A stretch of DNA of 32,000 nt from Candidatus Nanoarchaeia archaeon (lineage in GTDB: Archaea > Nanobdellota > Nanobdellia > Woesearchaeales > JANQNC01). The translations under genes and the position numbers were made by a program. Under the pieces are notes generated by a model. That model saw only the letters and a program-made list of their open reading frames with translations, was not told the DNA's origin and did no database searches. Shown one piece after another: positions 831 to 30,401 of this stretch. The stretch's first letter is position 1; every line of letters begins with the position of its first letter. The stretch is from assembly GCA_028279745.1 (NCBI GenBank), contig JANQNC010000001.1, positions 360,001-392,000 of the forward strand. Reading direction: 5' to 3'.

Positions 831-2485
831 TTTTTACCACCCAAGAAAGCATCCAATCTTAAATTAACTCCTTCTGCTTTCTTAAATCTATAAACAAAGA
901 ATGGGAGCTTGTAAGAAGATAACAGCAAAATCCACTCCCTTGCAATCTCCTGCGTGTCTAGAATCCCGTGCCTTACAAACTCAACCATAACACTACCTTC
1001 AAGAACATCTGACTTTCTTTCGCAAATGTTAAGTTTCTTTTTTACCTTGGTGCTTTGCAAGTTTTCATCCTGCCTGACAATCTGATTTTCAGACTCAGAA
1101 TTTATAGAAGATGTGACCGCAACCTTAAAACGAGTAGGCATACCGCAACTTTTGTATATTGTTTCTTCAGAAAACGTAAATGCTGAAACCTTTTCCTCAA
1201 CTTTCCTTAAAAGATCAATTGTGAAATCAACACCAAACTTTTCAGTCAAGAAACCATAATTCCAAAACCTAAGATAGTTTCGACTAAGCATAAATACTTG
1301 CTGAGTGTAAGGTTCATTTAGGTTAACCAAATAATCAAAGAATTCTGCTGCCTTCCTCCGGTGGATAGAGTTAGCTGAAAGCAACGATTCTGCACAATTT
1401 ATCACAAACCTTTCAAAAGAATCACCAGAAAAACCATATCTATCATAGTACTTCTTGACATCAACACTTAAAGAGGATTGCCCGCAACTTAAGGAAGATA
1501 CTTTACCTTGAACATTCTTTGAATAATCTTTCCATTCCGCACCGTTAAAACAATAAAGACCACCTTTGCCAAAACAGTAAGGGCTCTTAGCAAGAGACTT
1601 GTTCTTAATAAAAAGTGCGACACCGTTTTGAGATAGAATGCTGATAATAGTCTCAAATAAGGATGAGTCTGCACGGATCGATTTAGGACCCATCTCAAAA
1701 ATAATATTTAAGTTAACATACTTATTTGAAGCAAAAGATTTGACAAAAGATACCAGCTTATCTTCATCCACATCATCAACATCGATGTTAAAAGAGATTC
1801 TCTTGCCAAAATCCCTGCAGTCATCATCAAGCTTGTTAAGATAAGAAGATAATTCATCTGCAGAAGTGTCTATGAAAACTTCAAAATTGTTTATACCAAT
1901 ACAATCATTAACAAGATTAAAACTGTTATTTATTATACCAAACAGCTTTTCAACATTATTGATAACTTTACACTCACAGAAAAGACAGTTTAACCTATCT
2001 ATCCAGGTTGGCTCTTCTACCTTACTCACAATACCCAAATTTTCATAACCTTCGGTAGGCATCGCAGGAGTTCTAGGTTTTGAGATAGTAATCTGTCTTT
2101 TTTTGTACTTTTCAACAACCAATTCTTCACCTTCTTCCAAAGAAAGTGTAAAAAACTTCTCACCCTTACTGCCTTCCTTAACAAGTTTCAGAACACCTTC
2201 CTTAACAAGTTTAGTAAGATAATATAGTAGTTTCCTATGTAGTTTTGCCTTATCTCGTTTAGCTTTTTTTATGGATTCTTTAGTAGAATGAGCGTCTTTT
2301 AGTATAGATTCTATACTCTCATATGTTTCAGGATCCACAGATCTAACTATTTCAGTCGTTGAAAAGACCGCACTTGGGTCTTTCTTGTATAACAGCAGAA
2401 TTCGCTGCTCTGACGGGTTCATAAAGGTCATATGGGTAAGGGAGTATATAAACCTTTCTTTTGTTTCAGGAAAACCCTGAACCAT
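827..2485 (-). CDS. Hypothetical 552-aa protein; N-terminal segment possibly winged-helix-like
   Basis: Long uninterrupted ORF with a 4-nt overlap onto the ThyA-like gene. No catalytic motif recognised. The N-terminal ~110 aa (…LHRKLLYYLTKLVKEGVLKLVKEGSKGEKFFTL) resembles a wHTH wing region. Confidence 0.6.
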   Translation of the reverse strand: MVQGFPETKERFIYSLTHMTFMNPSEQRILLLYKKDPSAVFSTTEIVRSVDPETYESIESILKDAHSTKESIKKAKRDKAKLHRKLLYYLTKLVKEGVLKLVKEGSKGEKFFTLSLEEGEELVVEKYKKRQITISKPRTPAMPTEGYENLGIVSKVEEPTWIDRLNCLFCECKVINNVEKLFGIINNSFNLVNDCIGINNFEVFIDTSADELSSYLNKLDDDCRDFGKRISFNIDVDDVDEDKLVSFVKSFASNKYVNLNIIFEMGPKSIRADSSLFETIISILSQNGVALFIKNKSLAKSPYCFGKGGLYCFNGAEWKDYSKNVQGKVSSLSCGQSSLSVDVKKYYDRYGFSGDSFERFVINCAESLLSANSIHRRKAAEFFDYLVNLNEPYTQQVFMLSRNYLRFWNYGFLTEKFGVDFTIDLLRKVEEKVSAFTFSEETIYKSCGMPTRFKVAVTSSINSESENQIVRQDENLQSTKVKKKLNICERKSDVLEGSVMVEFVRHGILDTQEIAREWILLLSSYKLPFFVYRFKKAEGVNLRLDAFLGGKK

Positions 2486-2721
2486 TCAGGATTTGGCATG
2501 AAACAAAGTTTAATAATAAGCTTATCTTATTCGATATAGGCAGAATGAGAGTTTTTCAGGAATAATCTGAAATAAGCGCCGGCTTTAGCAAATTTAGGTT
2601 ATGAGAAATGAGACAAAGAAAAGAAAAATCAACTAAATTCTTCGATGCAATCGCAGGAGAAACTGAAGAGAAAAAGAAGTGGAAAAAGACAGATAAGTGG
2701 AAAGAACAGTGGTTCTAGAAA

Positions 2722-3474
2722 CTAATCGTGATGTTCTTCTTGAGATTCTTCTTCTGGTTTAATCAGGTGTTTATACTTATTCTTTAGAGATTTAGGTTCG
2801 TTATGTGCTTCGACAAGCATCTCTTTCATCTCTTCAAAGCTTAATCTCTTTACCTTATTCTCATCAAACTTAAGATCTGCCTTTTCCTTAGCAGCCTTAA
2901 CCAAGTGAGCAGCAAGATCTTCCTGTTCAGATTCAGGAATCTCGCTAAGGTGCTTTGATGTTTGATGGTGATATGTTCCTCTAGAAATGTTTTGGAATGG
3001 CTCATTCAATACCTCTTTAGTAAATCCTTTCTCTTTACCAGTGTGTTTAAGCTGATGGAAATTCACACCATACAACCTTAGTGTCTCTCTTGAAAACGCA
3101 AGATGATCTTTTTCTTCTTTGCTCAGTTCTTCGCCTCGGTTCTTTTTGTTCACAATGTCTTCGTACATCTTTCCCTGAAGACCAGAAACCTCATGTAAAA
3201 CGTGAACCCCAAACCTATCAACTAACCTTTCAGCCTCGTTATCATCTTCTATCTTATAATCATTGATAAGCTTGAGAAATTCTTTGTCTGATTTATCTCT
3301 CAAATTTCCGTCAGTTTTTGACTCTGCCAACTCATAGAAATGTCTTCCCCTAATTGATTCCAGCTCGTTAATAAGTTCACCCGTCCTATCCCTATATTTA
3401 TGATCGCCTGCTTTTTTAGCAAGCTTAGAATATTTATGATCATCTAGTCTCTCTTCAACACCTTCATCAGTCAT
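2722..3474 (-). CDS. Hypothetical 250-aa highly charged (K/E/H-rich) protein
   Basis: Uninterrupted ORF with codon usage like its neighbours. No motif recognised. Confidence 0.55.
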   Translation of the reverse strand: MTDEGVEERLDDHKYSKLAKKAGDHKYRDRTGELINELESIRGRHFYELAESKTDGNLRDKSDKEFLKLINDYKIEDDNEAERLVDRFGVHVLHEVSGLQGKMYEDIVNKKNRGEELSKEEKDHLAFSRETLRLYGVNFHQLKHTGKEKGFTKEVLNEPFQNISRGTYHHQTSKHLSEIPESEQEDLAAHLVKAAKEKADLKFDENKVKRLSFEEMKEMLVEAHNEPKSLKNKYKHLIKPEEESQEEHHD

Positions 3475-3623
3475 GTAATAATTCCCAACTTTTCTATATA
3501 TAAATGTTTCGTTGACAAAGATGTCCCACTAACTATGTTTTAATGCCAATAGTCTTTATAAATAAAAATGGACCCTTTGTCTCTGTAAAATTAAAATATC
3601 ACAATCGATAAGGAGATGATAAA

Positions 3624-5492
3624 ATGGCAGCAAAAAAGAAAGCGAAAAAATCAAGCAAGAAAGAAAAGAAAGAGTTAACAGAACAAGAGAAACAAGAAAA
3701 AGAGATGATGGATAAGCTTCCACCAGAAGCAAAAGAAAAATTACTAAAAATCAAGAAAAAATTAGAAAAATTCCAAGAAAAGGTAATGGAAAAATTTGAA
3801 GAGTACGTTATTGGGATCTCATTACTCCCACCACAAGAAGGAAAGGAAGTCAAAAAAGAAGACAAAGACAAGATTAATGTAATAATTCTGATAGATGACT
3901 CAGACAGCCAAAAGATGAGCAAGTATGAGCTGAAAGAGAAGTTATCAGCTATAATGGCATCAATCGCAAAAGAGATTGATGAGAATATACAAACACAAAC
4001 AATAATCCTATCAGAATTGTGGCAGAACTGCTATGACAGCCAATATGACTTATTGCAAATGATTGCTGTTTCAGCGCCAATCTTTGACAAAGGAATGATG
4101 CAAGCATGCAAGATAGCAGAAATCCACAAGAACATGACACTAAAGAAGTTTGAAAAGTACATCGTAAGTTATGTTCTATTCGGTTCATTAGTAAGAGGAG
4201 AAGCAACTCCCGAGTCAGACATAGACGTTGCAATCATAATTGATGATACTGATGTCAAAAAGATGACTCGAGCTGAATTGAAAGACAGACTGAGGTCAAT
4301 AATAATCGGCATGGGTGTTGAGGCTGGACAGATGACTGGAATCAAAAATAAGCTGAACATCCAAGTATATATCTTGACAGACTTCTGGGACTCAGTAAAA
4401 GAAGCAAACCCTGTAATCTTTACAATACTGAGAGATGGAATTCCATTCTACGACAGAGGAGTATTTATGCCATGGAAACAGTTGTTGCGTATGGGAAAAA
4501 TAAAACCCTCCGCAGAAGCGATAGACATGTTTATGAACACAGGAGAAGAGATGCTGAAAAGAGTACAAGGGAAATTAAACGAGATAGGAATGGAAGATGT
4601 GTTTTGGAGTATTTTGACACCATCACAAGCAGCACTGATGATGAACGGGATAGCTCCACCAACACCAAGAGAAACCCCTAAACTTCTTCGTGAAGTGTTT
4701 GTAAAGAAAGAAAAAATATTTGACGACAAACACGTAAAATTCCTCGAAGAAGTGATCAAGCTAAGAAAAGAGTTAGAGTATGCTACAGAACAAGGAAAAG
4801 AGCTGAAAGTTTCAGGAGAAAAAATAGACCATCTCCTATCAAACTCAAGAACATACCTTGATGAAATAAAGAAACTATTCACAAAGATAGAAGAGAAACG
4901 ATCTGAACAAGATGTCTTACACATCTACGAAAATACAGTAACCATCATAAGAGACATAATGAGACTGGAAAACGTAGAAAGGATGAAAGATGAAGACGAG
5001 ATCAGGCTTTTCAAGAGTGAAGTTGTAAACAAAGGACTTATCCCTGAAAAGTACTTCAGGATGTTAAACGAGATCGTGAAAGCAAAAGCAGACTTTGATG
5101 CAGGCAAACTAACAAAGCCAGAAGTAGAAAAAGTCAAGAAACAGTCTGGAGAGTTCATGAGATTTATGATTGAGTACTTGCAACGGAAAAGAGGAAGGGA
5201 ATTGGAAAGAACTAAGATCCGAGTTAAACATGGAGAAAAACATGGCGAGGTCATCTTGTTGGGGAAAACAGCATTCATCATCCACGACATAGACCAAGAA
5301 GAAAAAACCATGAGCAAAGCTCCAATCAACGAAGATGGAAGTCTAGGAACTCCAGAAAATGCAACACTTGAGGAATTAGAGAAAGCATTAGCAACAGTAG
5401 AGATTCCAGAAAGGGCTTACATCAAACAACCAATCTTTAATGACTTAAAGAGATTGTTCGGTAAAGACGTTGAAGTTCTAGTTCAATACTAG
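3624..5492 (+). CDS. Pol-beta-superfamily nucleotidyltransferase domain protein with two NTase-like modules and helical C-terminal region
   Basis: Classic minimal-NTase signature FGSLVRGEATPESDIDVAIIIDD, plus an upstream degenerate copy (VIGISLL…INVIILIDDSD). Both are followed by ...M[ST][KR]xELK[ED][KR]L... The N-terminus is K/E-rich. AAGGAG lies 8 nt upstream of the ATG. Confidence 0.75.
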   Translation: MAAKKKAKKSSKKEKKELTEQEKQEKEMMDKLPPEAKEKLLKIKKKLEKFQEKVMEKFEEYVIGISLLPPQEGKEVKKEDKDKINVIILIDDSDSQKMSKYELKEKLSAIMASIAKEIDENIQTQTIILSELWQNCYDSQYDLLQMIAVSAPIFDKGMMQACKIAEIHKNMTLKKFEKYIVSYVLFGSLVRGEATPESDIDVAIIIDDTDVKKMTRAELKDRLRSIIIGMGVEAGQMTGIKNKLNIQVYILTDFWDSVKEANPVIFTILRDGIPFYDRGVFMPWKQLLRMGKIKPSAEAIDMFMNTGEEMLKRVQGKLNEIGMEDVFWSILTPSQAALMMNGIAPPTPRETPKLLREVFVKKEKIFDDKHVKFLEEVIKLRKELEYATEQGKELKVSGEKIDHLLSNSRTYLDEIKKLFTKIEEKRSEQDVLHIYENTVTIIRDIMRLENVERMKDEDEIRLFKSEVVNKGLIPEKYFRMLNEIVKAKADFDAGKLTKPEVEKVKKQSGEFMRFMIEYLQRKRGRELERTKIRVKHGEKHGEVILLGKTAFIIHDIDQEEKTMSKAPINEDGSLGTPENATLEELEKALATVEIPERAYIKQPIFNDLKRLFGKDVEVLVQY

Positions 5493-9087: not shown

Positions 9088-9195
9088 GCCTCCGTGGCTT
9101 AGCGGTATAGCGTTGCATTGGTATGTTTGTTTCAAAACATTTGGAACGAAGTGACAAAAATGCAGAGGTCGCGAGTTCGATTCTCGCCGGAGGCT
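9088..9195 (+). tRNA. tRNA-Thr(GGU) with a ~36-nt canonical-position intron (~9124-9159)
   Basis: Acceptor GCCTCCG/CGGAGGC plus discriminator T. Anticodon stem TTGCA/TGCAG with loop TT-GGT-A. Variable loop AGGTC. T-arm GCGAG-TTCGATT-CTCGC. Confidence 0.85.
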
Positions 9196-10894: not shown

Positions 10895-11932
10895 ATGTCT
10901 CAAGAAAATCAGAAATACAAAGCAAAAATCTCAGACCATAAAACTGTAAATATGTATCTGAACGATATAAGAACAACTAAACCACTTTCAAGAGAAGAAG
11001 AAATCCAACACATCAAACGGATAAAACAGGGAAGTGACTACCTAAGAAACCAGTTTATCGAAGCAAATCTAAGGTTTGTTGTTTCTGTTGTATTTAAGTA
11101 TCAACACAAAGGTTTGCCTTTACCTGACTTGATAAATGAAGGCAATCTGGGATTGATACACGCAGTAGAAACATTTAATGAAACTAGAGGTGTTAAGTTT
11201 ATCTCTCACGCAGTCTGGAAAATTAGACAGATGGCAATGAAAGCACTAAACGAAAAACCAAGATTGGTTAGGCCGTCTGCAAATGCAATCGCATTGAGAT
11301 TAAAGCTAGACAGATACATCATACCAAGACTTGAACAGAAGATCCAAAGATATCCTCTTCCCGAAGAGGTGTGTGAAGAATTTACAAAATACCAAAACAC
11401 AATATATGCAGAACAGTTTAAAGATAAATACGGGAGATATCCAGGCCTAAAAGAGTTAGAGGGCGAGAAAGAAGGCAAGGAAAAAATAACTTTAGATCGA
11501 GTAAAAAGAGCGATGGACGTGCACGATACACAACCTAGCCTAGACTCCCCCTTAGATGACGAAGATAACTCGACATTGATGGACATCCTAGTTGATGAGT
11601 CTGTTGACATATCTCCAGATAGCAGGTTAGAAGAAGAAAGTTTTGACATACACCAAGAAGAAGTGTTAAGAGTGTTAGACCCTAAATCTAGAGATATAAT
11701 AAAGATGTACAACGGGATAGACTATGACAGAGAGTACACACTTAAAGAGATAGGCAAAAAATACAAAATCTCACGAGAGAGGGCAAGACAGATAAAAAGA
11801 GACGCAGTGGAAAAGATGAGAAAGTTGTACATAAATCCTGAAAAGCTTGAAAAAAGATTACTAGAAATTAGAGAAACTCCAGGCATGCTAAAACCAACAC
11901 CCTCTAAAATAGGCAGACCGAAAAAACAGTAA
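10895..11932 (+). CDS. Sigma-70 family RNA polymerase sigma factor homologue (regions 1.2, 2, 3, 4)
   Basis: YLNDIRTTKPLSREEE (r1.2). FIEANLRFVVSVVFKYQHKGLPLPDLINEGNLGLIHAVETFNETRGVKFISHAVWKIRQMAMKAL (r2.1-2.4). RLVRPSANAIALRLKL (r3.0). LDPKSRDIIKMYNGID…YTLKEIGKKYKISRERARQIKRDAVEKMRKL (r4.1-4.2). Confidence 0.85.
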   Translation: MSQENQKYKAKISDHKTVNMYLNDIRTTKPLSREEEIQHIKRIKQGSDYLRNQFIEANLRFVVSVVFKYQHKGLPLPDLINEGNLGLIHAVETFNETRGVKFISHAVWKIRQMAMKALNEKPRLVRPSANAIALRLKLDRYIIPRLEQKIQRYPLPEEVCEEFTKYQNTIYAEQFKDKYGRYPGLKELEGEKEGKEKITLDRVKRAMDVHDTQPSLDSPLDDEDNSTLMDILVDESVDISPDSRLEEESFDIHQEEVLRVLDPKSRDIIKMYNGIDYDREYTLKEIGKKYKISRERARQIKRDAVEKMRKLYINPEKLEKRLLEIRETPGMLKPTPSKIGRPKKQ

Positions 11933-19053: not shown

Positions 19054-20715
19054 ATGATTATGAATAAGAAAAGGAACACAATTGAGGAGATCGCAGACTT
19101 TCTATTAGAGAATGGAGGGATTACTGAAGAGGGCAGAGTTCACTATGAGTTGAAAGGTGCGAGGTGTGAGGAGTTAGAATCTGCTATTGTTATGGCTGAA
19201 TTGAGGGGTCTGCCAAAAGGCTTCAAGCCTTATCATGCTAGACAGATTAAATGTGTTTGGGATAATCCTGAATACGTTGAGAATGTCTTAGTTAGCAAGA
19301 TTGATCAAGTGTTGGAAGAAAAATGTAAGGACAGTTTATTTGATTTAATAACTAAAACCGTCACGTCTCACTTATTTTCTCATTTTAAAGATGAAGTCAA
19401 TGGTAAAGCTTTGAAGGTTTCAATGCGTTCGGTTAGCGGTAAATTTAACCAATGTGCATTTGAAATGGTCAAAAAGTATGTAGATTTGAAAGGTATAAAA
19501 GGTTTTGAAAATCTAAAACCTTATCATTTTAAGCAAGCATCTCAGAATACGTGGGATGATGAATGTATTGTGAATGAAGTCTTAAAAAGGAGAATTGGTG
19601 AATTACTAAAAGAAAATTATAACAATGACTTTGTTAAACTAATTTCAAAGGTAAGTTATGAGGAGTTAGTTGCACCTATTAGAGATAAACTTGATGGAAA
19701 AGATGTTGAAGTTTCTCTAGTTAGGTTTAGTAAAAAGTTTGGCGACAATATTTATAATATACTCAAAGCTTATGTTGGTTTAGAAGGTTTGGAGGGTTTT
19801 GAGAATTTTAAACCATATCATCTTAACAACACTACCAGAAACACTTGGAACGATCAATCTGCATTAGATGAAGTTCTTATGAGAAAGGTTGATCAGTTAT
19901 TGGAAGAAAAATATGAGGGTAGTTTGGCTAGGTTAATAGAATGCACAGATAAGTTTGAATTATTTACTCCTATAAAAGATAATTTGGGCGGTAAAGATAT
20001 TAATATTTCAGTTTATAGTGTAGGTCAGAAGTTTAATGATAGTCCTTACCTTATGATTAAGTCTTATATTGATCTTAAAGGTTTAAAAGGTTTTGATAAC
20101 TTTAAAGCATATCATCTAGGTGCACCCGATCATGACATTTGGAGTAATCAAGATGCAGTAAATGAGGTTCTTGTTATGAAAATTGATCAATTGTTGGAGG
20201 AAAGTTATAAAGGAGATTTGATCGAATTGATAAAGAATACATGTAATAACGAATTATTGGCTCCCGTTATAGATAAACTTAATGGGGAAGAAGTTAAGAT
20301 TCGGATGCGTTCAGTAGCGGATAAATTTAACACGTGCCCATTTAAAATGATCAAAGCATATATTTGTCTTAAGGGGTTAGATGGTTTTGAGAAGTTTAAA
20401 CCATATCATCTCGGCAACTCATCTAAAGAAACCTGGTCTGATCAAGATGCAGTAAATGAGGTTCTTGTTATGAAAATTGATCAATTGTTGGAGGAAAAAT
20501 ATGGGGGTGACTTAGTGAAACTAACAACTAGTACAAATCATAAGGAATTAACAACACCTGTTAAAGACGAGCTTGGTGGAAAAGATGTTGAGATTTCAAT
20601 GTATAGGTTAAATACAAAATTTAATGATAGCCCATATGAAATGCTAAAAAAATATCATGAAATAAAAGGTCTACCTTTCAACTATACCAAAAGTAATTAT
20701 AAGACTGCAGTGTAA
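19054..20715 (+). CDS. Orphan tandem-repeat protein: five ~98-aa repeats plus an N-terminal partial repeat
   Basis: Repeat consensus is KPYHxxxxxxxxW[DNS]xxxxVxEVLxxKIDQLLEExYxGxLxxLIxxxxxxELxxPxxDxLxGKxVxISxxSVxxKFNxSPYxMxKxYxxLKGLxGFxNF. No signal peptide or TM. An alternative start lies at ATG 19060. Confidence 0.7.
   Translation: MIMNKKRNTIEEIADFLLENGGITEEGRVHYELKGARCEELESAIVMAELRGLPKGFKPYHARQIKCVWDNPEYVENVLVSKIDQVLEEKCKDSLFDLITKTVTSHLFSHFKDEVNGKALKVSMRSVSGKFNQCAFEMVKKYVDLKGIKGFENLKPYHFKQASQNTWDDECIVNEVLKRRIGELLKENYNNDFVKLISKVSYEELVAPIRDKLDGKDVEVSLVRFSKKFGDNIYNILKAYVGLEGLEGFENFKPYHLNNTTRNTWNDQSALDEVLMRKVDQLLEEKYEGSLARLIECTDKFELFTPIKDNLGGKDINISVYSVGQKFNDSPYLMIKSYIDLKGLKGFDNFKAYHLGAPDHDIWSNQDAVNEVLVMKIDQLLEESYKGDLIELIKNTCNNELLAPVIDKLNGEEVKIRMRSVADKFNTCPFKMIKAYICLKGLDGFEKFKPYHLGNSSKETWSDQDAVNEVLVMKIDQLLEEKYGGDLVKLTTSTNHKELTTPVKDELGGKDVEISMYRLNTKFNDSPYEMLKKYHEIKGLPFNYTKSNYKTAV
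19222..20691 (+). repeat. Five tandem in-frame repeats with exact 294-nt period
   Basis: The AAA-CCx-TAT-CAT (KPYH; KAYH in unit 4) landmark recurs at 19222, 19516, 19810, 20104 and 20398. Units 4 and 5 share an identical 57-nt block (20147-20203 = 20441-20497). Confidence 0.85.
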
Positions 20716-23567: not shown

Positions 23568-23936
23568 ATGAATGTATTCAAATGCGAAGTCTGTGGAAAC
23601 ACAATATCTTTTGTAGACAACAAAGGACCAAAGATAGTATGCTGTGACAAAGAGATGGAAGAATTACCAATAAAAACAGAAGATGAAGGACAAGAAAAAC
23701 ACGTGCCAGTATTAAGTGTGGAAGGAAACAAAGTAAATGTTAAAGTTGGATCTGTAGAACACCCAATGGAAGACGAACACTACATACAACTTATTCAATT
23801 AGTCCAGAATGACAAAGTAATATTTGAAAAAAGACTATCTCCAGGAGAAAAACCAGAAGCAGAGTTCTTGGTTGAAAACACTGAAAATCTAAAAGCAAGG
23901 GAAGTATGCAACGTTCACGGATATTGGAGCAACTAA
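23568..23936 (+). CDS. dfx: Desulfoferrodoxin (2Fe superoxide reductase)
   Basis: N-terminal desulforedoxin Cys4 (CEVCGN…VCCDKEM). SOR centre II ligands EKHVP, HPMEDEHYI and CNVHG. 122 aa. Confidence 0.9.
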   Translation: MNVFKCEVCGNTISFVDNKGPKIVCCDKEMEELPIKTEDEGQEKHVPVLSVEGNKVNVKVGSVEHPMEDEHYIQLIQLVQNDKVIFEKRLSPGEKPEAEFLVENTENLKAREVCNVHGYWSN

Positions 23937-23937
23937 A

Positions 23938-24147
23938 ATGGTCTTAACTGAGATTGCATATGCTAAATTTTTAGGTCTTTCAACAATAGTTTATGTTGGG
24001 ATAATTACTTACGCTTTAGTTTTAGCAGCAGTAATCACAGGATTAAAAGGCGCACCAATAAAAGTGCATAAGACATTGGCAGGGTTCGCAATAGTATTAG
24101 CGACAGTACATGCACTTTTAGTGCTTGGCGGACAACTAGGATGGTGA
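23938..24147 (+). CDS. 69-aa two-TM membrane protein with two His 14 residues apart in TM2
   Basis: Starts 1 nt after the dfx stop. Hydrophobic helices at about 11-36 and 46-64. H44 and H58 sit in KVHKTLAGFAIVLATVHALL. Confidence 0.55.
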   Translation: MVLTEIAYAKFLGLSTIVYVGIITYALVLAAVITGLKGAPIKVHKTLAGFAIVLATVHALLVLGGQLGW

Positions 24148-24151
24148 GAAA

Positions 24152-24295
24152 ATGGATAAAAAATTTTTCAGATGCACAGTATGCGGAGACATACACTTTG
24201 GCATTAATGGACCAGAACACTGTCCAACATGCCAGCAGGACAACAAGTATGTAGAAATAGACAAAGAAGAAGCAAAAAACATACTAGGACTATGA
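24152..24295 (+). CDS. 47-aa rubredoxin-like Cys4 zinc-ribbon protein (not in ORF track)
   Basis: MDKKFFRCTVCGDIHFGINGPEHCPTCQQDNKYVEIDKEEAKNILGL has CxxC…CxxC spaced as in the rubrerythrin C-terminal domain. Its TGA overlaps the next ATG (ATGA). Confidence 0.6.
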   Translation: MDKKFFRCTVCGDIHFGINGPEHCPTCQQDNKYVEIDKEEAKNILGL

Positions 24296-24561
24296 ATCCA
24301 GAAGAACTAAAGAAGGCCTGGGGGAAATTTACAGAGAAAAACGAATTTATTCTTAACCCTGATGAAAAATATGTCGATGGCATAATTGATGGCGTGTTAA
24401 AGAACGAAGAGAAACACGGTCTGAAGTTATGTCCTTGCAGACTGAGGGATGAAACAAAAGAAAAAGACCTAGAACTAATATGCCCCTGTAATTTCGAAAT
24501 ACAAAAAAACTGGGATAAAAAAGGAGATTGTTGGTGCGGATTGTTTGTAAAAAGGAAATAG
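24292..24561 (+). CDS. Ferredoxin:thioredoxin reductase catalytic-subunit-like protein, copy 1
   Basis: CPC…CPC…CWCGLF cysteine pattern. I place the start at ATG 24292 (MNPEELKK…), not the track's 24229, whose extra 21 codons overlap the rubredoxin-like ORF. Confidence 0.75.
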   Translation: MNPEELKKAWGKFTEKNEFILNPDEKYVDGIIDGVLKNEEKHGLKLCPCRLRDETKEKDLELICPCNFEIQKNWDKKGDCWCGLFVKRK

Positions 24562-24591
24562 TTAAAAGTAAAGGTGTAAAAGTTATAAAAA

Positions 24592-24897
24592 ATGGATAAA
24601 GAACAACTACTGAACTTCTACAAGAAGTTTACAGAAGGCAAGGACTTCAAACTGACAGAGAATGAAGAACATCTAGACATGATCTTAACAGGTTTAATTA
24701 ATAACCAAAAAAAACATGGAATCAGGAGCTGTCCATGCAAAGCAAATAACGGAAGCAAAGAACAACTAATCAAGAATGCTTGTCCATGCAAGTTCAAAGA
24801 AGAAGAGATCTGGACCAAAGAAAACAGATGTTGGTGTGGATTGTTTGAAAGGAGATCAACAGCTGGAGCATCAGCTGACACTGCAGACGACTCCTAG
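24592..24897 (+). CDS. Ferredoxin:thioredoxin reductase catalytic-subunit-like protein, copy 2
   Basis: Paralogous to copy 1, with the same spacing: CPCKANN…ACPCKFK…RCWCGLFERR. Has an extra S/T/A/D-rich tail. Confidence 0.75.
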   Translation: MDKEQLLNFYKKFTEGKDFKLTENEEHLDMILTGLINNQKKHGIRSCPCKANNGSKEQLIKNACPCKFKEEEIWTKENRCWCGLFERRSTAGASADTADDS

Positions 24898-24939
24898 TGC
24901 GTTGCACCGGAGTCCTCTACGAACGGAGGGAAATAAAAA

Positions 24940-25506
24940 ATGAGTAAAACAGAAGAAAATCTAAAAATGGCGTTTGCTGGTGAGAGCCAAGCAAGAAACA
25001 AATACACATATTTTGCAAAAGTAGCAAGAAAAGAAGGCTACCACTACATCGCTAAAATATTCGAAGAGACTGCACTAAACGAGATGCAGCACGCAAAAGA
25101 AGAATTCAAACTGTTAAAAGGGATAGGAGATACAGAAGCAAACCTAAAAGCAGCAATTGAGGGAGAACATTACGAAACAACAGATATGTACCCAACAATG
25201 GCAAAAGATGCAGCAGCAGAAGACAACAAAGAAGCTGAAAACCTATTCAAACAGATAGGAAAAGTTGAGGCAGAACACGAAGCAAGATACAAAAAATTAC
25301 TAGAGATGGTAGAAAAAGGAAACGTCTTTAAACGAGAAAAACCAATCAGATGGAAATGTTCAAAGTGCGGTTACATACATGAAGGTACAGAACCAGTTGA
25401 AAAGTGCCCATCATGCAAACACCCAAGAGAATACTTCGAACCTGAATGTCTGTGTTTTGGAGAAGGGTGCGAGGTATGTAATCCAGCTGGAGCAGATAAA
25501 AAATAA
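24940..25506 (+). CDS. rbr: Rubrerythrin with extra C-terminal Cys4 tail
   Basis: Diiron four-helix motifs AFAGESQARNKY…EETALNEMQHA…GEHYE…EAEHEARY. Rubredoxin domain WKCSKCGYIH…CPSCKHPREYFE. Tail PECLCFGEGCEVCNPAG. GGAGGG lies 9 nt upstream of the ATG. Confidence 0.9.
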   Translation: MSKTEENLKMAFAGESQARNKYTYFAKVARKEGYHYIAKIFEETALNEMQHAKEEFKLLKGIGDTEANLKAAIEGEHYETTDMYPTMAKDAAAEDNKEAENLFKQIGKVEAEHEARYKKLLEMVEKGNVFKREKPIRWKCSKCGYIHEGTEPVEKCPSCKHPREYFEPECLCFGEGCEVCNPAGADKK

Positions 25507-25520
25507 GAGGTAAAACAAAA

Positions 25521-25940
25521 ATGGTTTCAAAAGAGGAACTGATAGAACATCTGAACGATGATCTAAGAAAAGAGTATCAGGCAATGATACAATACATACA
25601 GCATGCAGCAGTAATGAAGGGAGCTCAATATGGAGACATAATAAAGGAACTATTGGTACATGCAACAGAAGAACATAATCATGCAGTGACACTAGCAAAC
25701 CAGATAGATTATCTGGGAGGTGTGCCTGTTGCAAACATGACAGAAGCACAGCTATCAGACAACAACGAAGATATGTTAAGACAGGACTTAGCAGGAGAAG
25801 AAGACGCAGTAGAAAGATACAAAGTAAGAATAAAAGAAGCAGAAGAAATAATGGAACTTGCTGTGGCTGAACATCTAAAACAGATACTAATACAAGAGCA
25901 GGAACATGTTATGGATCTAAAACAAGCTCTTGGCGAATAG
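25521..25940 (+). CDS. Ferritin-like diiron protein (bacterioferritin-like)
   Basis: 139 aa with LNDDLRKEYQAMIQYIQHA…ATEEHNHAVTLANQIDYLGG…LAGEEDAVERY…ILIQEQEHVMDL (ExxH pairs). Confidence 0.75.
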   Translation: MVSKEELIEHLNDDLRKEYQAMIQYIQHAAVMKGAQYGDIIKELLVHATEEHNHAVTLANQIDYLGGVPVANMTEAQLSDNNEDMLRQDLAGEEDAVERYKVRIKEAEEIMELAVAEHLKQILIQEQEHVMDLKQALGE

Positions 25941-25954
25941 GAGGAAGTTCAACA

Positions 25955-25989
25955 GCGGACATGTGCACCTTCGGTGCTTAGTCCACTAG
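25955..25989 (+). other. Intergenic stem-loop motif, copy 2 (GGAC…GCACC-TTC-GGTGC…GTCC + ACTAG)
   Basis: 25957-25960 pairs with 25981-25984, and inner 25965-25969 pairs with 25973-25977. Followed by ACTAGCAAAAAACAAGGAGGA, which includes the SD of the next gene. Confidence 0.4.
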
Positions 25990-26011
25990 CAAAAAACAAG
26001 GAGGAGAAAAA

Positions 26012-26272
26012 ATGGTACAAGTAAAAATTTATTCAACACCAACATGCCCATACTGTAATATGGCAAAAGAATTCTTTAAAGAAAAAGGGATAGAATATGA
26101 GGATATCAATGTAGCAGAAGATCAAGAAGCAGAAAAAGAGATGGTAGAAAGATCAGGACAGATGGGCGTTCCACAAATTCTAATAGGTGAAACCCTAATT
26201 GTAGGTTTTGATAAAGGAGCAATAGAAGCTGCGCTAGCAGGATCTTCAGAAGAGAAAAAAGAGGAAGAATAA
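26012..26272 (+). CDS. Glutaredoxin-like / NrdH-like small thiol-disulfide oxidoreductase
   Basis: 86 aa. VKIYSTPTCPYCNMAKEFFKEKGIEYEDINV (CPYC), a GVPQ cis-Pro motif, and an acidic tail. Confidence 0.85.
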   Translation: MVQVKIYSTPTCPYCNMAKEFFKEKGIEYEDINVAEDQEAEKEMVERSGQMGVPQILIGETLIVGFDKGAIEAALAGSSEEKKEEE

Positions 26273-26274
26273 AA

Positions 26275-27180
26275 ATGTATGATGTAGCAGTTATTGGAGG
26301 AGGACCTGCAGCAGTGACTGCTGCAATATACGCAGTAAGAAAAAATTTAAGCGTGCTTTTAGTGACAAAAGATATAGGCGGGCAGATGGCACTATCTGCA
26401 GACATAGAAAACTGGCCCGGCACAATAAAAGCTACAGGAGTGGAATTAACACAAAAATTCCAAGAACATCTGGATAATTTTGAGATAGATACAAAAACAG
26501 ACCTTGTAGGGGAGATAGTTAAAACTGATGATGGCTTTAAAATAAAATCCCGAGCTAACGAATACAACTCAAAAACAGTAATAATAGCAACAGGAAGAAA
26601 ACCAAGAGAACTTGGTATACCTGGCGAAAAAGAATGTAAAAAGCAAGGAGTAACTTATTGTGCAACCTGTGACGCACCTCTATTTGCTGGAAAAGACGTT
26701 GTAGTTGTAGGCGGCGGCAATTCAGGATTAGATGCTGTACTTCAGTTGATAAGTATTGCAAACAAGATATACCTAGTTGAAGCAACAGATAAACTGATAG
26801 CTGACGAAGTTATGGTAGAGAAAGCAAAAGCATCGGAAAAAGTTGAAATCTTCACAAGTGCCAAACCAAAAAAGATATGTGGAGATGGTAAATTTGTAAC
26901 TTCATTCACAATTGAACACGAGGGCCAAGACAAAGAACTTTCAGTGGGTGGAGTGTTCATAGAGATAGGGTATGTAGCAACAGAAAAACCTGATGTTGAA
27001 GGTTTAGAAAGAAATGAATGGAAAGAAATCGTAGTTAATGAAAAATGTGAAACAAACATCCCTGGATTGTTTGCAGCAGGAGATGTAACTAACGTTCCCG
27101 AAAAACAGATAGTTGTGGCTGCAGGACAAGGATGTATCGCTTCAATACAAGCATTCAAGTATCTTTCTACCACAAAGTAG
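26275..27180 (+). CDS. trxB: Thioredoxin-disulfide reductase (low-Mr TrxR family)
   Basis: FAD motif VIGGGPAAVTAAIYA, redox CATCDAPLF, NAD(P)H motif VVVGGGNSGLDAV, C-terminal GLFAAGDV. 301 aa. Confidence 0.9.
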   Translation: MYDVAVIGGGPAAVTAAIYAVRKNLSVLLVTKDIGGQMALSADIENWPGTIKATGVELTQKFQEHLDNFEIDTKTDLVGEIVKTDDGFKIKSRANEYNSKTVIIATGRKPRELGIPGEKECKKQGVTYCATCDAPLFAGKDVVVVGGGNSGLDAVLQLISIANKIYLVEATDKLIADEVMVEKAKASEKVEIFTSAKPKKICGDGKFVTSFTIEHEGQDKELSVGGVFIEIGYVATEKPDVEGLERNEWKEIVVNEKCETNIPGLFAAGDVTNVPEKQIVVAAGQGCIASIQAFKYLSTTK

Positions 27181-28036: not shown

Positions 28037-28507
28037 TTACTTCTTCTTTAGAGCTAATGCACCAATTGCAACAACTGCAATCAAAACAACAATTGCTGAA
28101 CTATTGACTTCAGGGATTTCTCCGCCTTGAGGTTCAGGGAACCCAGCCATAGTAGTACAATCACAACCATCCTTTGTGTTACAATCGACAGTTAAATCAC
28201 CCAGTCGCCGTAAATCGCATTGACCACCTGTACTGTTGCAGTGTTGACAGTAGTTAACACAACCGCTATCTACGCAAGTATTATCAGTAAAAAACCAACG
28301 ATCATTAGATCCAGAACTTGGGTTACACCCATCATTACTGTTAATATCATTGTAAAAACATACACCTGCTTTATTAGTACTCACATAAGCTACCCCTCTA
28401 TAATCCACGCTGCTGTATGGCGCGCATGCAGGAGCAGCACATTGTGCACTCACAACTCCAACAGCAGTTAAAGCCATCAGAATAAATATCATTAATCTTG
28501 TTTTCAT
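28037..28507 (-). CDS. Secreted Cys-rich (12 Cys) protein with C-terminal EIPEVNSSAIV-TM-KKK module
   Basis: Signal-peptide-like MKTRLMIFILMALTAVGVVSAQC. The mature region is rich in C/N/D/G/S. The C-terminus is GGEIPEVNSSAIVVLIAVVAIGALALKKK*. Confidence 0.7.
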   Translation of the reverse strand: MKTRLMIFILMALTAVGVVSAQCAAPACAPYSSVDYRGVAYVSTNKAGVCFYNDINSNDGCNPSSGSNDRWFFTDNTCVDSGCVNYCQHCNSTGGQCDLRRLGDLTVDCNTKDGCDCTTMAGFPEPQGGEIPEVNSSAIVVLIAVVAIGALALKKK

Positions 28508-28603
28508 CTTTTTATCACCCCACTAGTTGGTTATGGCCGTTATAGAAAAGACCACTTATAAAGTTTTCTGAAAATAAGCCACAAACATTTCAAGGATACA
28601 AAT

Positions 28604-28611
28604 ATTTATAA
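28604..28611 (+). promoter_or_regulatory. TATA-box-like element upstream of the fused membrane/SpeE-like gene
   Basis: ATTTATAA lies about 24-31 nt upstream of ATG 28635 with no SD, so the mRNA is probably leaderless. Confidence 0.3.
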
Positions 28612-28634
28612 GTCAAACAAGTTTAAAACAGGGC

Positions 28635-30074
28635 ATGAAAAGAAATTTGACAATAGGAATTATTGTTTTCTTAGCCGGCGCGGTTCTTATGGCATTAGAA
28701 ATTGCAGGAGGTAGATTATTAACTCCCGATTATGGAGGAAGTGTTTATGTCTGGGGCTCAATAATAGGCATATTTTTGATCGGATTAAGCTCGGGCTATT
28801 TCTTTGGTGGAAAGATTGCAGACAAATACCCTCTCAAACACACATTATCATTACTCATGTTAACAAGTGCCATCTTCACACTAGTAATACCCCTAATACA
28901 CAAACCAGTTGTTAAATTATTCACCATCTTACCCAATAACATCTCACCTTTAGCTTCTTCAATCAGCCTATTCCTAATACCTAGCATATTACTGGGAACT
29001 GTGTCCCCTTTTGCAATCAAACTTTCTGCAAAAAACATAACAGGGATAGGAAATCTTTCAGGAAACCTATATGCACTAGCAACAACAGGAAGCGTAATAG
29101 GCACTTTTCTTACTACTTTTGTTTTAATCTTGATACTGCCTATGAAGGTCTTATTTGTTTCGTTAGGAATCATCCTTTTACTGTGCTCTCTTCTTTTGTC
29201 AAAGCGTGTTTTATTGCCAGCTCTGATAATCTTAATAATCTCAACAACATTCTTTATCCCTTTTGGCGAAAGCTCCACAGGATTAGCCACCGACGAACTC
29301 TTAGATGTTTCAAAAGAATCATTATATGGGCAAGTTAGAGTTGCAGATTCATATAAAGCCAGAGAGCTGTTTATATCTGGCGCGCCGATGGGTTCGATGG
29401 ATAAAGAAGATCCAACATCCACTCTGTCAGGGTGGGAATATATAGACAGCATGGAAAACGCTTTTCTGATAAACCCTGAAATAGATGATGTGCTGATAAT
29501 AGGGCTTGGACCAGGATTGCTTGCTAAGAAGCTGCAACAAAACCATCCTGAAACAAAAGTAGATGGAGTAGACATAAACCCTGTCGTTATAGAATTTGCA
29601 CAAAAGTACTTTAATGTAACCTCCACAGAAAATCTAAAACTGATTGAATCAGACGGCAGAACATTCTTGGAAAATGAGAAGAAATATGACCTGATCACAA
29701 TAGATGCATACCATTTCAAAGAAACTTACAAGATACCTTTTCACCTAGCAACAAAAGAATTCTTTGAATCAGTTCAAAAAAACCTAAAACAAGACGGGAT
29801 CTTTACAGCAATGTACATATCAGAAAGAGACAGTTATGCTGAGAATAACTTTCACAAATCAGAATACAAAACAGTAGACAGCGTATTCAAAAAGATATAC
29901 ATGTTTGATTGTGGACCCACACAAGTACTGTTTGCATCAGATAGCATACTAGACTTGAGTTCAGATGAATTCATTTGTGAATATTATAATATTGATATTG
30001 ATACAAACGATGTACCCCTTTTCACAGATGACTATGCACCTATCAACCTATTTGAGGAAATAGGTGAGAATTAG
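28635..30074 (+). CDS. Fused polytopic-membrane (MFS-like) / spermidine-synthase-like SAM-dependent transferase
   Basis: The N-terminal ~210 aa has about 7 TM segments. The C-terminal domain has the SpeE-like fold motifs VLIIGLGPGLLAKKL, DGVDINPVVIEFAQKYF and DLITIDAY. Confidence 0.8.
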   Translation: MKRNLTIGIIVFLAGAVLMALEIAGGRLLTPDYGGSVYVWGSIIGIFLIGLSSGYFFGGKIADKYPLKHTLSLLMLTSAIFTLVIPLIHKPVVKLFTILPNNISPLASSISLFLIPSILLGTVSPFAIKLSAKNITGIGNLSGNLYALATTGSVIGTFLTTFVLILILPMKVLFVSLGIILLLCSLLLSKRVLLPALIILIISTTFFIPFGESSTGLATDELLDVSKESLYGQVRVADSYKARELFISGAPMGSMDKEDPTSTLSGWEYIDSMENAFLINPEIDDVLIIGLGPGLLAKKLQQNHPETKVDGVDINPVVIEFAQKYFNVTSTENLKLIESDGRTFLENEKKYDLITIDAYHFKETYKIPFHLATKEFFESVQKNLKQDGIFTAMYISERDSYAENNFHKSEYKTVDSVFKKIYMFDCGPTQVLFASDSILDLSSDEFICEYYNIDIDTNDVPLFTDDYAPINLFEEIGEN

Positions 30075-30083
30075 AAAAAAAAT

Positions 30084-30401
30084 TCATTTCTTCTTTACTA
30101 CGAAAAACCCTGCAATTGCAACAACTATGATTATAGCAACAATTGCTGAAGCATTTATCTCGGGGATTTCGCTACTGGGCTCAAGCGGAGGGTCGCAAGG
30201 ACGTTCAGGTATGCAAAAACCATCATCCCAATCACACTGAGTACCTCCAAACTCTGCACCCCAGTGATTAAGACAGGCAGACTGGTCTCCGTTAAAATTC
30301 CGACAGCTTTCATTCATTTCTCCCTCGCACTCTGCTGCACTCCCAATTCCAACAGCAAACAATGCTATCAGCACAAACATAATTATTCTTTTCATTATCA
30401 T
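30084..30401 (-). CDS. Secreted Cys-rich (6 Cys) protein with C-terminal EIPEINASAIV-TM-KKK module
   Basis: Signal-peptide-like MIMKRIIMFVLIALFAVGIGSAAEC. The C-terminus is SSEIPEINASAIVAIIIVVAIAGFFVVKKK*. Paralogous at both termini to 28037-28507. Confidence 0.7.
   Translation of the reverse strand: MIMKRIIMFVLIALFAVGIGSAAECEGEMNESCRNFNGDQSACLNHWGAEFGGTQCDWDDGFCIPERPCDPPLEPSSEIPEINASAIVAIIIVVAIAGFFVVKKK

Follow-up and report, generated by a model that had tools for sequence, protein, structure and literature searches.

Introduction

The PGF-CTERM/ArtA system of Haloferax volcanii is the sole archaeal C-terminal sorting system of its type that has been studied experimentally. Its substrates have a Sec signal peptide and a temporary C-terminal helix, and undergo motif-dependent cleavage and covalent lipid attachment (PMC6098224). 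A second class, PEF-CTERM (TIGR03024 / IPR017474), is proposed to be the signal for archaeosortase C (ArtC; Haft et al. 2012, as cited in PMC5244752 and PMC9723798) and is reported from Methanosarcinales and ANME-2 (PMC5244752, PMC9723798). Here, we describe a C-terminal tail of similar build on two secreted Cys-rich proteins, A and B. Their genes are located in a 32,000-nt stretch (referred to as the window) from a Candidatus Nanoarchaeia archaeon (contig JANQNC010000001.1, positions 360,001 to 392,000) and flank a gene for a 479-aa protein in which seven transmembrane (TM) helices are fused to a domain resembling spermidine synthase (SpeE).

The 479-aa protein can be compared with NHMT (AN4663) from Aspergillus nidulans, whose seven TM helices extend up to residue 215 and which also has a four-stranded sheet and a Rossmann domain like that of SpeE (PMC10349129 and preprint). 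NHMT is annotated as spermidine synthase and is devoid of the acidic residue of GxG(D/E)G. It is located in the endoplasmic reticulum, and it methylates the N-terminal histidine (His1) of secreted lytic polysaccharide monooxygenases, with the TM domain being needed for activity. Reportedly, the enzyme is confined to filamentous fungi and acts specifically on His1 (PMC10349129).

Occurrence of the tail on unrelated secreted proteins

The C-termini of A and B are nearly identical, as had been pointed out in an earlier note on this DNA: EIPE[VI]N[SA]S is followed by 16–17 hydrophobic residues, KKK, and the stop codon. A profile built from these two tails was searched against 1.84 billion representative proteins, which retrieved four further C-terminal tails (P0003, P0004, P0006, and P0007; E 5e-8 to 8e-4). 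All matches reach the C-terminal residue or stop at most one residue short of it. A scan of contigs with regular expressions and hidden Markov models (HMMs) added P0011 and two adjacent genes on a metagenome contig (L039a and L039b), resulting in a set of nine tails (see Table 1).

According to an exact look-up, A, B, P0003, P0004, P0007, and P0011 are encoded at four separate loci on a single contig of 1,301,350 bp. The source genome thus codes for at least six tail proteins, and the remaining three tails (P0006 and the two on L039) originate from other metagenomes. The ectodomains which bear the tail are unrelated (Cys-rich, beta-helix, and LamG), and the alignment between B and P0006 is confined to the last 37 residues (57% identity, E 3e-13). 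The motif search, which had been suggested in the earlier note as a check, has thus established that the tail is not limited to A and B. A signal peptide, consisting of M-K/R and a hydrophobic stretch, is found on every full-length tail protein (8 of 9, leaving out L039a, whose open reading frame is cut by the contig end), and seven of these have an A-x-A-type cleavage site.

An HMM made from all nine tails detected no more copies in the ~0.4 Mb of contig DNA examined. A degenerate DNA pattern for the tail produced 25 matches in a collection of genome contigs which does not include the source genome. None of these is a genuine tail; they were dismissed as chance matches or as a membrane-protein motif, [DEG]IPE[IV]N.RE, which by eye is NuoM-like. 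With a tightened pattern, 11 matches were obtained in metagenome contigs, of which one is real (L039), while the only match in viral contigs is due to chance.

Selection on the tail was assessed by counting identical codons at identical residues of the tail core, with the expectation taken from the codon usage of the window. Overall, 71 of 154 codons are identical (61.4 expected), and synonymous sites are saturated in all pairs of tails except A-B. Because synonymous sites are randomized while I-P-E, [NS]-x-[ST], and the helix have been retained, the codon test shows that the tail motif is under purifying selection at the peptide level. In the A-B pair, 11 of 14 codons at identical residues are identical (5.7 expected), which points to a more recent common origin of these two tails or to gene conversion. 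This relation explains the similarity at the nucleotide level, correctly seen in the earlier note, which includes long identical DNA runs (TTCAGCAATTGTTG and AGTTGTTGCAATTG). Taken together, the spread over unrelated proteins and the codon test support the view that the tail is a modular C-terminal sorting or anchoring signal and not a by-product of duplication.

A second, N-terminal type of lipid anchor is also encoded in the source genome: two adjacent proteins on L030 (28-912 and 973-1896, both on the minus strand) have lipobox-type signal peptides (...LAGC). Their genes adjoin that for a glucosaminidase-domain protein (1893-3824).

Relationship to PEF-CTERM signals and proposed processing

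The consensus of the tail is ...[EQ]-P-x-x-[EDT]-I-P-E-[IVM]-[NS]-x-[ST], followed by 16–18 hydrophobic residues, a K/R cluster, and the stop codon. I-P-E is invariant in all nine tails. N-x-[ST] is found at the same position in six of them, and the other three have SSS, SQT, and SDF. A, B, and all other tails of the set share the tripartite layout at the extreme C-terminus (motif, ~16–20 hydrophobic residues, basic cluster, stop). All nine end 3–5 basic residues past the helix, whereas the plain anchors of two other surface proteins (L043 and L047) have cytoplasmic tails of ~60 aa.

When tails alone were compared to TIGR03024 (arch_PEF_CTERM; curated cut-off 23 bits), scores of 24.5 (P0003), 21.3 (P0011), 19.1 (P0004), 13.4 (B), 13.1 (L039b), and 12.2 bits (P0007) were obtained. 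In each matched tail, the match begins at model position 1, which corresponds to the I of I-P-E. By comparison, the models for LPXTG, NPXTG, and Loki-CTERM match the helix and the basic part but not the motif. A PGF-type signal was ruled out on model coverage, and no TIGR04126-type (PGF-CTERM) match was obtained at E<=10 in scans of full-length proteins or tails.

The tail shares with PEF-CTERM the archaeal host, the extreme C-terminal position, the order of motif, helix, and basic cluster, the identical placement of Pro-Glu, and the occurrence on many unrelated ectodomains per genome. Literal PEF is found only in relatives (VIPEFSDFG on L039 and VSVPEFSDL on L049), and with these [IV]-P-E-F tails, there is a continuum from PEF to PE[IVM]. 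On L039, a contig of 2.2 kb, VIPEFSDFG and NIPEINITG are encoded by adjacent genes, and the PEF and PE[IV]N forms therefore coexist in one organism. The tail differs from PEF-CTERM by having Ile, Val, or Met in place of Phe, followed by the conserved [NS]-x-[ST], and by an upstream E/Q-P-x-x-E which is also conserved. In addition, its host is a small-genome, probably DPANN-like archaeon rather than a member of the Methanosarcinales or ANME-2.

The tail had been called unlisted in the earlier note. This holds for full-length tail proteins, which stay below the cut-offs of all curated NCBIfam and Pfam models, but not for isolated tails, which match TIGR03024, in one case above the cut-off. Similarly, the postulated lineage-specific processing or anchoring signal stands as a modular signal under selection but does not fall outside the listed classes, given its affinity to PEF-CTERM.

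On balance, we slightly favor the interpretation that A and B are surface proteins rich in disulfides, which are exported via Sec and carry a lineage-specific variant of the PEF-CTERM sorting signal. PGF-CTERM/ArtA serves as the mechanistic template, although the motif is PGF there and IPE[IV]N here, and the substrates of ArtA include the S-layer glycoprotein. By this analogy, the N-terminal signal peptide would direct export and would then be cleaved. The C-terminal helix would keep the protein in the membrane, with KKK in the cytoplasm and IPE at the outer face of the membrane. A dedicated archaeosortase-type transpeptidase would read the IPE motif and cut off the helix together with KKK, and the new C-terminus would be joined to a membrane lipid, as ArtA does for PGF-CTERM substrates in Hfx. 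volcanii. From this comparison, we infer that the tail would be cleaved, that a lipid would be attached, and which type of enzyme would do the processing.

Several points weigh against a PEF-CTERM-like sorting signal. The signature Phe of PEF is replaced, with A having P-E-V, B having P-E-I, and the tails of the source genome having I, V, or M at this position. TIGR03024 does not match A at all, and B stays below the cut-off even when its tail is analyzed alone. All full-length proteins score under the cut-off (19.6 bits for P0003, then 14.5 and 14.4 bits, no match for A). Even the genuine VPEF tail on L049 reaches merely 19.3 bits, and short hydrophobic models of this kind score partly by composition. 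No archaeosortase, exosortase, or sortase gene is present in the window and the three other tail loci, which together cover ~73 kb of 1.3 Mb; for the window, this is in line with the earlier note. To our knowledge, PEF-CTERM/ArtC processing has never been demonstrated experimentally. Archaeosortases have been described in "a subset of Euryarchaeota" (PMC6098224), and our literature search found no report of archaeosortases in DPANN archaea.

Because the Phe is lacking and the model cut-off is not reached for A and B, we do not file the tail as a PEF-CTERM member. Judged by its sequence, the IPE[IVM][NS]x[ST] tail is best taken as a novel form within the range of this class, placed outside strict membership.

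One candidate for a hidden archaeosortase, a 291-aa polytopic protein encoded 3 kb from P0007 (on L030), was rejected. It has no exosortase/archaeosortase match and shows only weak similarity to GPDPase_memb/DUF7847.

With IPE[IVM][NS]x[ST]-helix-K/R-stop as a handle, the surface proteome can be listed for a little-known lineage of small-genome archaea, the biology of which is thought to rest on cell-cell contact. The tail also widens the range of PEF-type signals, which have been described in methanogen and ANME genomes, and sharpens the question of the processing enzyme.

A permanent anchor as an alternative

A serious rival, which we rate as possible rather than probable, is that the helix is an ordinary stop-transfer anchor which is never cleaved. 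The conserved EIPE[IV]N-x-[ST] would then have another job, for example as an N-glycosylation sequon, as a spacer, or in contact with the S-layer or a host cell. In favor of this reading, no processing enzyme was found in the ~73 kb; accessory systems are often absent from small DPANN-type genomes. Also, the sub-threshold TIGR03024 scores of all full-length proteins are consistent with this alternative. A role as sequon is suggested by the six tails which have N-x-[ST] at the same position, but conservation reaches past the sequon to the invariant I-P-E, three tails have no Asn, and the Asn is only two residues away from the helix. For the eukaryotic oligosaccharyltransferase (OST), a site two residues from the membrane is too close for glycosylation of a protein that is still anchored, although archaeal AglB may differ. 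Because of this closeness and of the three tails devoid of Asn, the sequon is probably part of a recognition motif and not a glycosylation site. Finally, a removable signal agrees better than a permanent anchor with the missing cytoplasmic extension and with the alignment, which is PEF-CTERM-like.

The locus and its two Cys-rich secreted proteins

The features of the locus are compiled in Table 1. The open reading frames of A and B confirm the earlier description of two secreted Cys-rich proteins (12 and 6 Cys) with like signal peptides. The earlier note had both genes converging on or flanking the SpeE-like gene. This applies to B, which is convergent with stop codons 9 bp apart, whereas A is divergent and separated by the intergenic region. 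A scan of that region for promoters and terminators gave no sigma-70 or terminator signal over background.

The public gene call for A has 146 aa and starts at Met11, thereby truncating the signal peptide (28478-28507 is the start region). The start which results in 156 aa has an SD-like (Shine-Dalgarno-like) GGTGAT upstream and an N-terminus matching that of the paralogues. For B, the public call (103 aa) starts from the second ATG. SD-like GGTGA motifs are present 5' of the starts of both A and B. We infer from its sequence that the signal peptide of A would be cut after VSA; all 12 Cys residues are within the mature part. The signal peptides of A and B share 48% identity over 21 aa, while the mature cores do not align to each other. 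When full-length A was used as a query against 5.8 billion proteins, A itself was the sole match; evolution of the cores is too rapid for such a search, and its word index is blind to the tail.

Table 1. Features of the locus, further proteins with the tail, and secreted or surface proteins encoded next to homologues of the 479-aa enzyme. Positions refer to the window unless a contig is named.
Feature	Position	Strand	Description or basis
Gene A	28037..28507	-	156-aa secreted Cys-rich protein with IPE-type C-terminal tail
A, signal peptide MKTRLMIFILMALTAVGVVSA	28445..28507	-	same pattern in paralogues
A, mature Cys-rich ectodomain	28121..28444	-	30% identity to paralogue P0004 across the whole length
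A, signature motif EIPEVNSS	28097..28120	-	in paralogues, IPE coincides with PEF-CTERM model position 1
A, C-terminal helix (16 aa) and KKK	28040..28096	-	helix AIVVLIAVVAIGALAL (28049-28096), KKK (28040-28048); stop codon directly after
Intergenic region, A / SpeE-like gene	28508..28634	.	divergent, 127 bp; AT-rich TATA-like elements (by eye only)
7-TM / SpeE-fold enzyme, 479 aa	28635..30074	+	NF037959 (fused MFS/spermidine synthase) member
Enzyme, seven-helix membrane domain, aa 1-210	28635..29264	+	AF2 model and positive-inside count
Enzyme, four-stranded beta sheet and Rossmann domain, spermidine-synthase fold, aa 224-451	29304..29987	+	model, alignment, structure match
Enzyme, GLGPG, GxGxG nucleotide loop	29502..29516	+	without the aminopropyltransferase acidic residue
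Gene B	30084..30401	-	105-aa secreted Cys-rich protein (6 Cys), same tail type as A
B, signal peptide M(IM)KRIIMFVLIALFAVGIGSA	30336..30401	-	sequence
B, mature Cys-rich ectodomain	30171..30335	-	sequence
B, signature motif EIPEINAS	30147..30170	-	sequence
B, C-terminal helix (17 aa) and KKK	30087..30146	-	helix AIVAIIIVVAIAGFFVV (30096-30146), KKK (30087-30095); stop codon directly after
P0003, 287 aa			beta-helix protein with tail; tail-profile search
P0004, 158 aa			Cys-rich (12 Cys) with tail; tail-profile search
P0006, 113 aa			Cys-rich (6 Cys) with tail, unrelated metagenome; tail-profile search
P0007, 283 aa			LamG protein with tail; tail-profile search
P0011, 593 aa			beta-helix protein adjoining P0003, ends ...DDIPEMSQT-helix-KKR; regex and HMM scan of contigs
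L039a and L039b, adjacent genes	L039: 322-1931	-	NIPEINITG-helix-KRKKK and VIPEFSDFG-helix-KKRKV; regex and HMM scan
S8 protease, 1629 aa	L043/L044		signal peptide and C-terminal helix; 7 nt upstream of homologue
RCC1-repeat protein	L047		signal peptide and C-terminal helix; upstream of homologue
YadA-head adhesin, at least 1895 aa	L048: 3-5690		upstream of homologue
Fragment homologous to the L048 YadA-head adhesin	L050: 1-711		upstream of homologue
Delta-60-repeat protein, 637 aa	L049		ends VSVPEFSDL-helix-KKQKD; 37 nt downstream of homologue

Just upstream of the Cys-rich secreted genes, a co-directional oxidative-stress/redox cluster is located (23568-27180, plus strand). It codes for desulfoferrodoxin, two ferredoxin-thioredoxin-reductase beta-like proteins, rubrerythrin, a ferritin-like protein, glutaredoxin, and a thioredoxin-reductase-like protein.

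The 479-aa enzyme and its genomic context

The middle gene codes for a clear member of NF037959 (185.6 bits, cut-off 40), with residues 16-422 matching model positions 2-410 of 480. Its AlphaFold2 (AF2) model (pLDDT 88, pTM 0.80) consists of seven long helices, a four-stranded sheet, and a Rossmann domain, and the soluble part matches spermidine synthases from PDB (Foldseek E ~1e-10). In spite of the common fold, the protein differs from SpeE aminopropyltransferases. Scores for the SpeE equivalogs are far under their cut-offs (82.9 vs. 304, 57.7 vs. 260, and 45.6 vs. 249.55 bits). In an alignment with SpeE from Thermotoga maritima, GGGDGG corresponds to GLGPGL and DSTDP to DAYHF, so that the D-x-x-D putrescine site is absent. 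The acidic position of GxG(D/E)G is occupied by A, G, T, P, C, or M in all 33 homologues. The proposal of the earlier note that an aminopropyl group is transferred to A, B, or their anchor is thus not borne out; judged by these residues, aminopropyl transfer by this enzyme is unlikely. Our literature search yielded no paper which names "fused MFS" together with spermidine synthase.

Across the 33 homologues, K+R amounts to 9.6 in the loops predicted to be inside (the N-terminal side) and to 2.9 in those predicted to be outside. With seven helices, this distribution leads to a predicted topology with the N-terminus inside and the catalytic domain facing outward. In archaeal homologues, TM7 is followed by a linker which is rich in S/T/N and bears sequons.

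A specific coupling between the tail and the SpeE-like gene, as envisaged in the earlier note, is not supported by the comparison of gene arrangements, and the three-gene order is not conserved. Besides A and B, the genome has four tail genes at three other loci, none with a SpeE-like neighbor, and none of seven homologous SpeE-like loci (42–49% identity by BLASTP) has an IPE[IV]N tail. In five of these seven contexts, however, the immediate neighbor of the homologue is a secreted or surface protein (see Table 1), while L042 and L045 have no secreted immediate neighbor. A YadA-head adhesin-like gene directly precedes the gene for the 7-TM SpeE-like protein in two organisms (L048 and L050, with gaps of 81 and 95 nt), which represents conserved synteny. 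By a crude predictor, ~8% of the non-neighbor genes at the homologue loci look secreted. For five of seven against ~8%, a rough binomial calculation by hand gives p 0.002-0.008 for this small sample.

The more general idea of a membrane transferase with exported proteins as substrates thus retains some backing (the secreted neighbors, the predicted outward domain, and the NHMT precedent), although a specific coupling to the tail is not supported. We regard the link between the enzyme and A and B as a lead rather than as demonstrated. Plausibly, the enzyme would act in trans and would not be tied to the C-terminal tail.

Comparison with fungal NHMT

The sequence of NHMT was rebuilt from Supplementary Note 3 of PMC10349129. 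The NF037959 protein and NHMT agree in having seven TM helices within ~210-215 aa, a four-stranded sheet, a SpeE-like Rossmann domain, and GLG[A/I/P]G devoid of the acidic residue. Both are annotated as spermidine synthase in databases, and NHMT works on secreted proteins. These correlations raise the question of whether the 7-TM/SpeE-fold enzyme methylates exported proteins, A and B among them, at the outer face of the membrane in an NHMT-like manner, which would be compatible with either fate of the tail (cleaved or permanent). We consider this reading tentative and rather unlikely, even though methyl transfer fits better than aminopropyl transfer.

The architecture, with the acidic residue missing in 33 of 33 homologues, is in favor of methylation. 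The family profile matches the catalytic domain of NHMT with 98.6% probability (E 6e-16), but such a match is expected of any SpeE-fold protein. The 7-TM domains, when compared by hhalign, reach E 0.067, which is within the range of shuffled controls (one shuffle reached 0.02), so that homology of this part is not demonstrable. A motif, L-x-P-x-Y-G-[GS]-[ST], follows TM1 in both proteins (residues 29-36 of the window protein, which include the family-invariant G34, and 37-44 of NHMT), although the overall 7-TM alignment is not significant. The outward catalytic domain and the S/T/N-rich linkers of archaeal homologues also count in favor, but this topology comes from prediction, and a source of S-adenosylmethionine (SAM) outside a prokaryotic cell would have to be accounted for. 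Secreted neighbors in five of seven contexts point in the same direction, against which stand the two contexts without such a neighbor and the small sample. For A and B, the sole link is adjacency, with the four other tail genes being away from the enzyme. In contrast to the substrates of NHMT, none of the neighbor proteins is predicted to start with His after cleavage (the mature N-termini are Q, A, E, T, and A), and the prokaryotic family has no known substrate.

The enzyme and the tail can be combined into a single scheme, which we put forward as speculative and improbable. NF037959 would be misnamed and would represent the equivalent of NHMT in prokaryotes, namely a methyltransferase which faces outward, is tethered by its 7-TM domain, and obtains SAM via or along this domain. 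It would modify A, B, neighboring adhesins and proteases, and PEF-tailed proteins. The IPE[IV]N-x-[ST] tail would hold the substrates by the enzyme before release by an archaeosortase-type enzyme.

Irrespective of this scheme, a large and widely annotated "spermidine synthase" family lacks the residue for aminopropyl transfer, a side result which may matter more than the tail. Together with the predicted outward orientation, the repeated secreted neighbors, and the methylation of secreted proteins by the sole characterized enzyme of like architecture, it makes protein methylation outside the prokaryotic cytoplasm directly testable.

Less probable explanations of the tail

A sortase-type, LPXTG-like signal, with a bacterial-type sortase reading IPE[IV]N and linking the protein to a cell-wall polymer, is very improbable. 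The tripartite C-terminal architecture would fit, bacterial-type genes are present in the genome (for a sigma-70 factor and for the glucosaminidase-domain protein on L030), and there are weak matches to TIGR01167 (LPXTG_anchor; 10.9-15.6 bits, with those of 14.4-15.6 bits coming close to the 15.9-bit cut-off). However, these matches cover only model positions 10-34, which represent the helix and the basic tail, and leave the LPXTG motif unmatched. A sortase-type signal was ruled out on this coverage. Moreover, nearly all sortase motifs have Thr at position 4, where the tail has I, V, or M, and no sortase gene was seen in the DNA examined. Sortases also belong to another enzyme family, and their product is a cell-wall rather than a lipid linkage.

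Simple duplication, with the tail common to A and B merely because these are recent paralogues, has next to no chance as the full explanation and was rejected: the genes are just 1.6 kb apart and their shared codons indicate recent relation or gene conversion, but the tail is also present on beta-helix and LamG proteins without similarity to A or B and in other metagenomes, and synonymous sites are saturated in every other pair.

Other features of the window

The rest of the window is archaeal (Nre, archaeal S15, L11, DTD2, XPD helicase; ~35% G+C), and its proteins map to the 1,301,350-bp contig mentioned above. Within these surroundings, a bacterial-type sigma-70 factor of 345 aa (RpoS/RpoD-like, E ~1e-49) is encoded at 10895-11932 (plus strand). 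Among DPANN archaea, sigma-70 genes are reported to be especially prevalent in Woesearchaeota (PMC8204110), and the source organism is probably of DPANN type. At 9088-9195 (plus strand), Rfam detected a tRNA (54.9 bits) which takes up 108 nt as compared to a model of 71 positions and is therefore likely to include an intron. ARAGORN did not predict any tRNA in the window.

A 553-aa protein (19054-20715, plus strand), for which no family match was obtained, consists of five ~110-aa repeats (...GFxxFKPYHL...W.D...V.EVL..K[IV]DQLLEE...). Ribosomal protein L11 (30486-31235, minus strand) has an extra C-terminal extension of ~85 aa, which is Ala/Glu/Lys-rich and ends ...AAAAGGAAPAEGAAEEKKE. The extension resembles the acidic tail of stalk proteins and shows a weak match to an "L11/unknown domain fusion" model.

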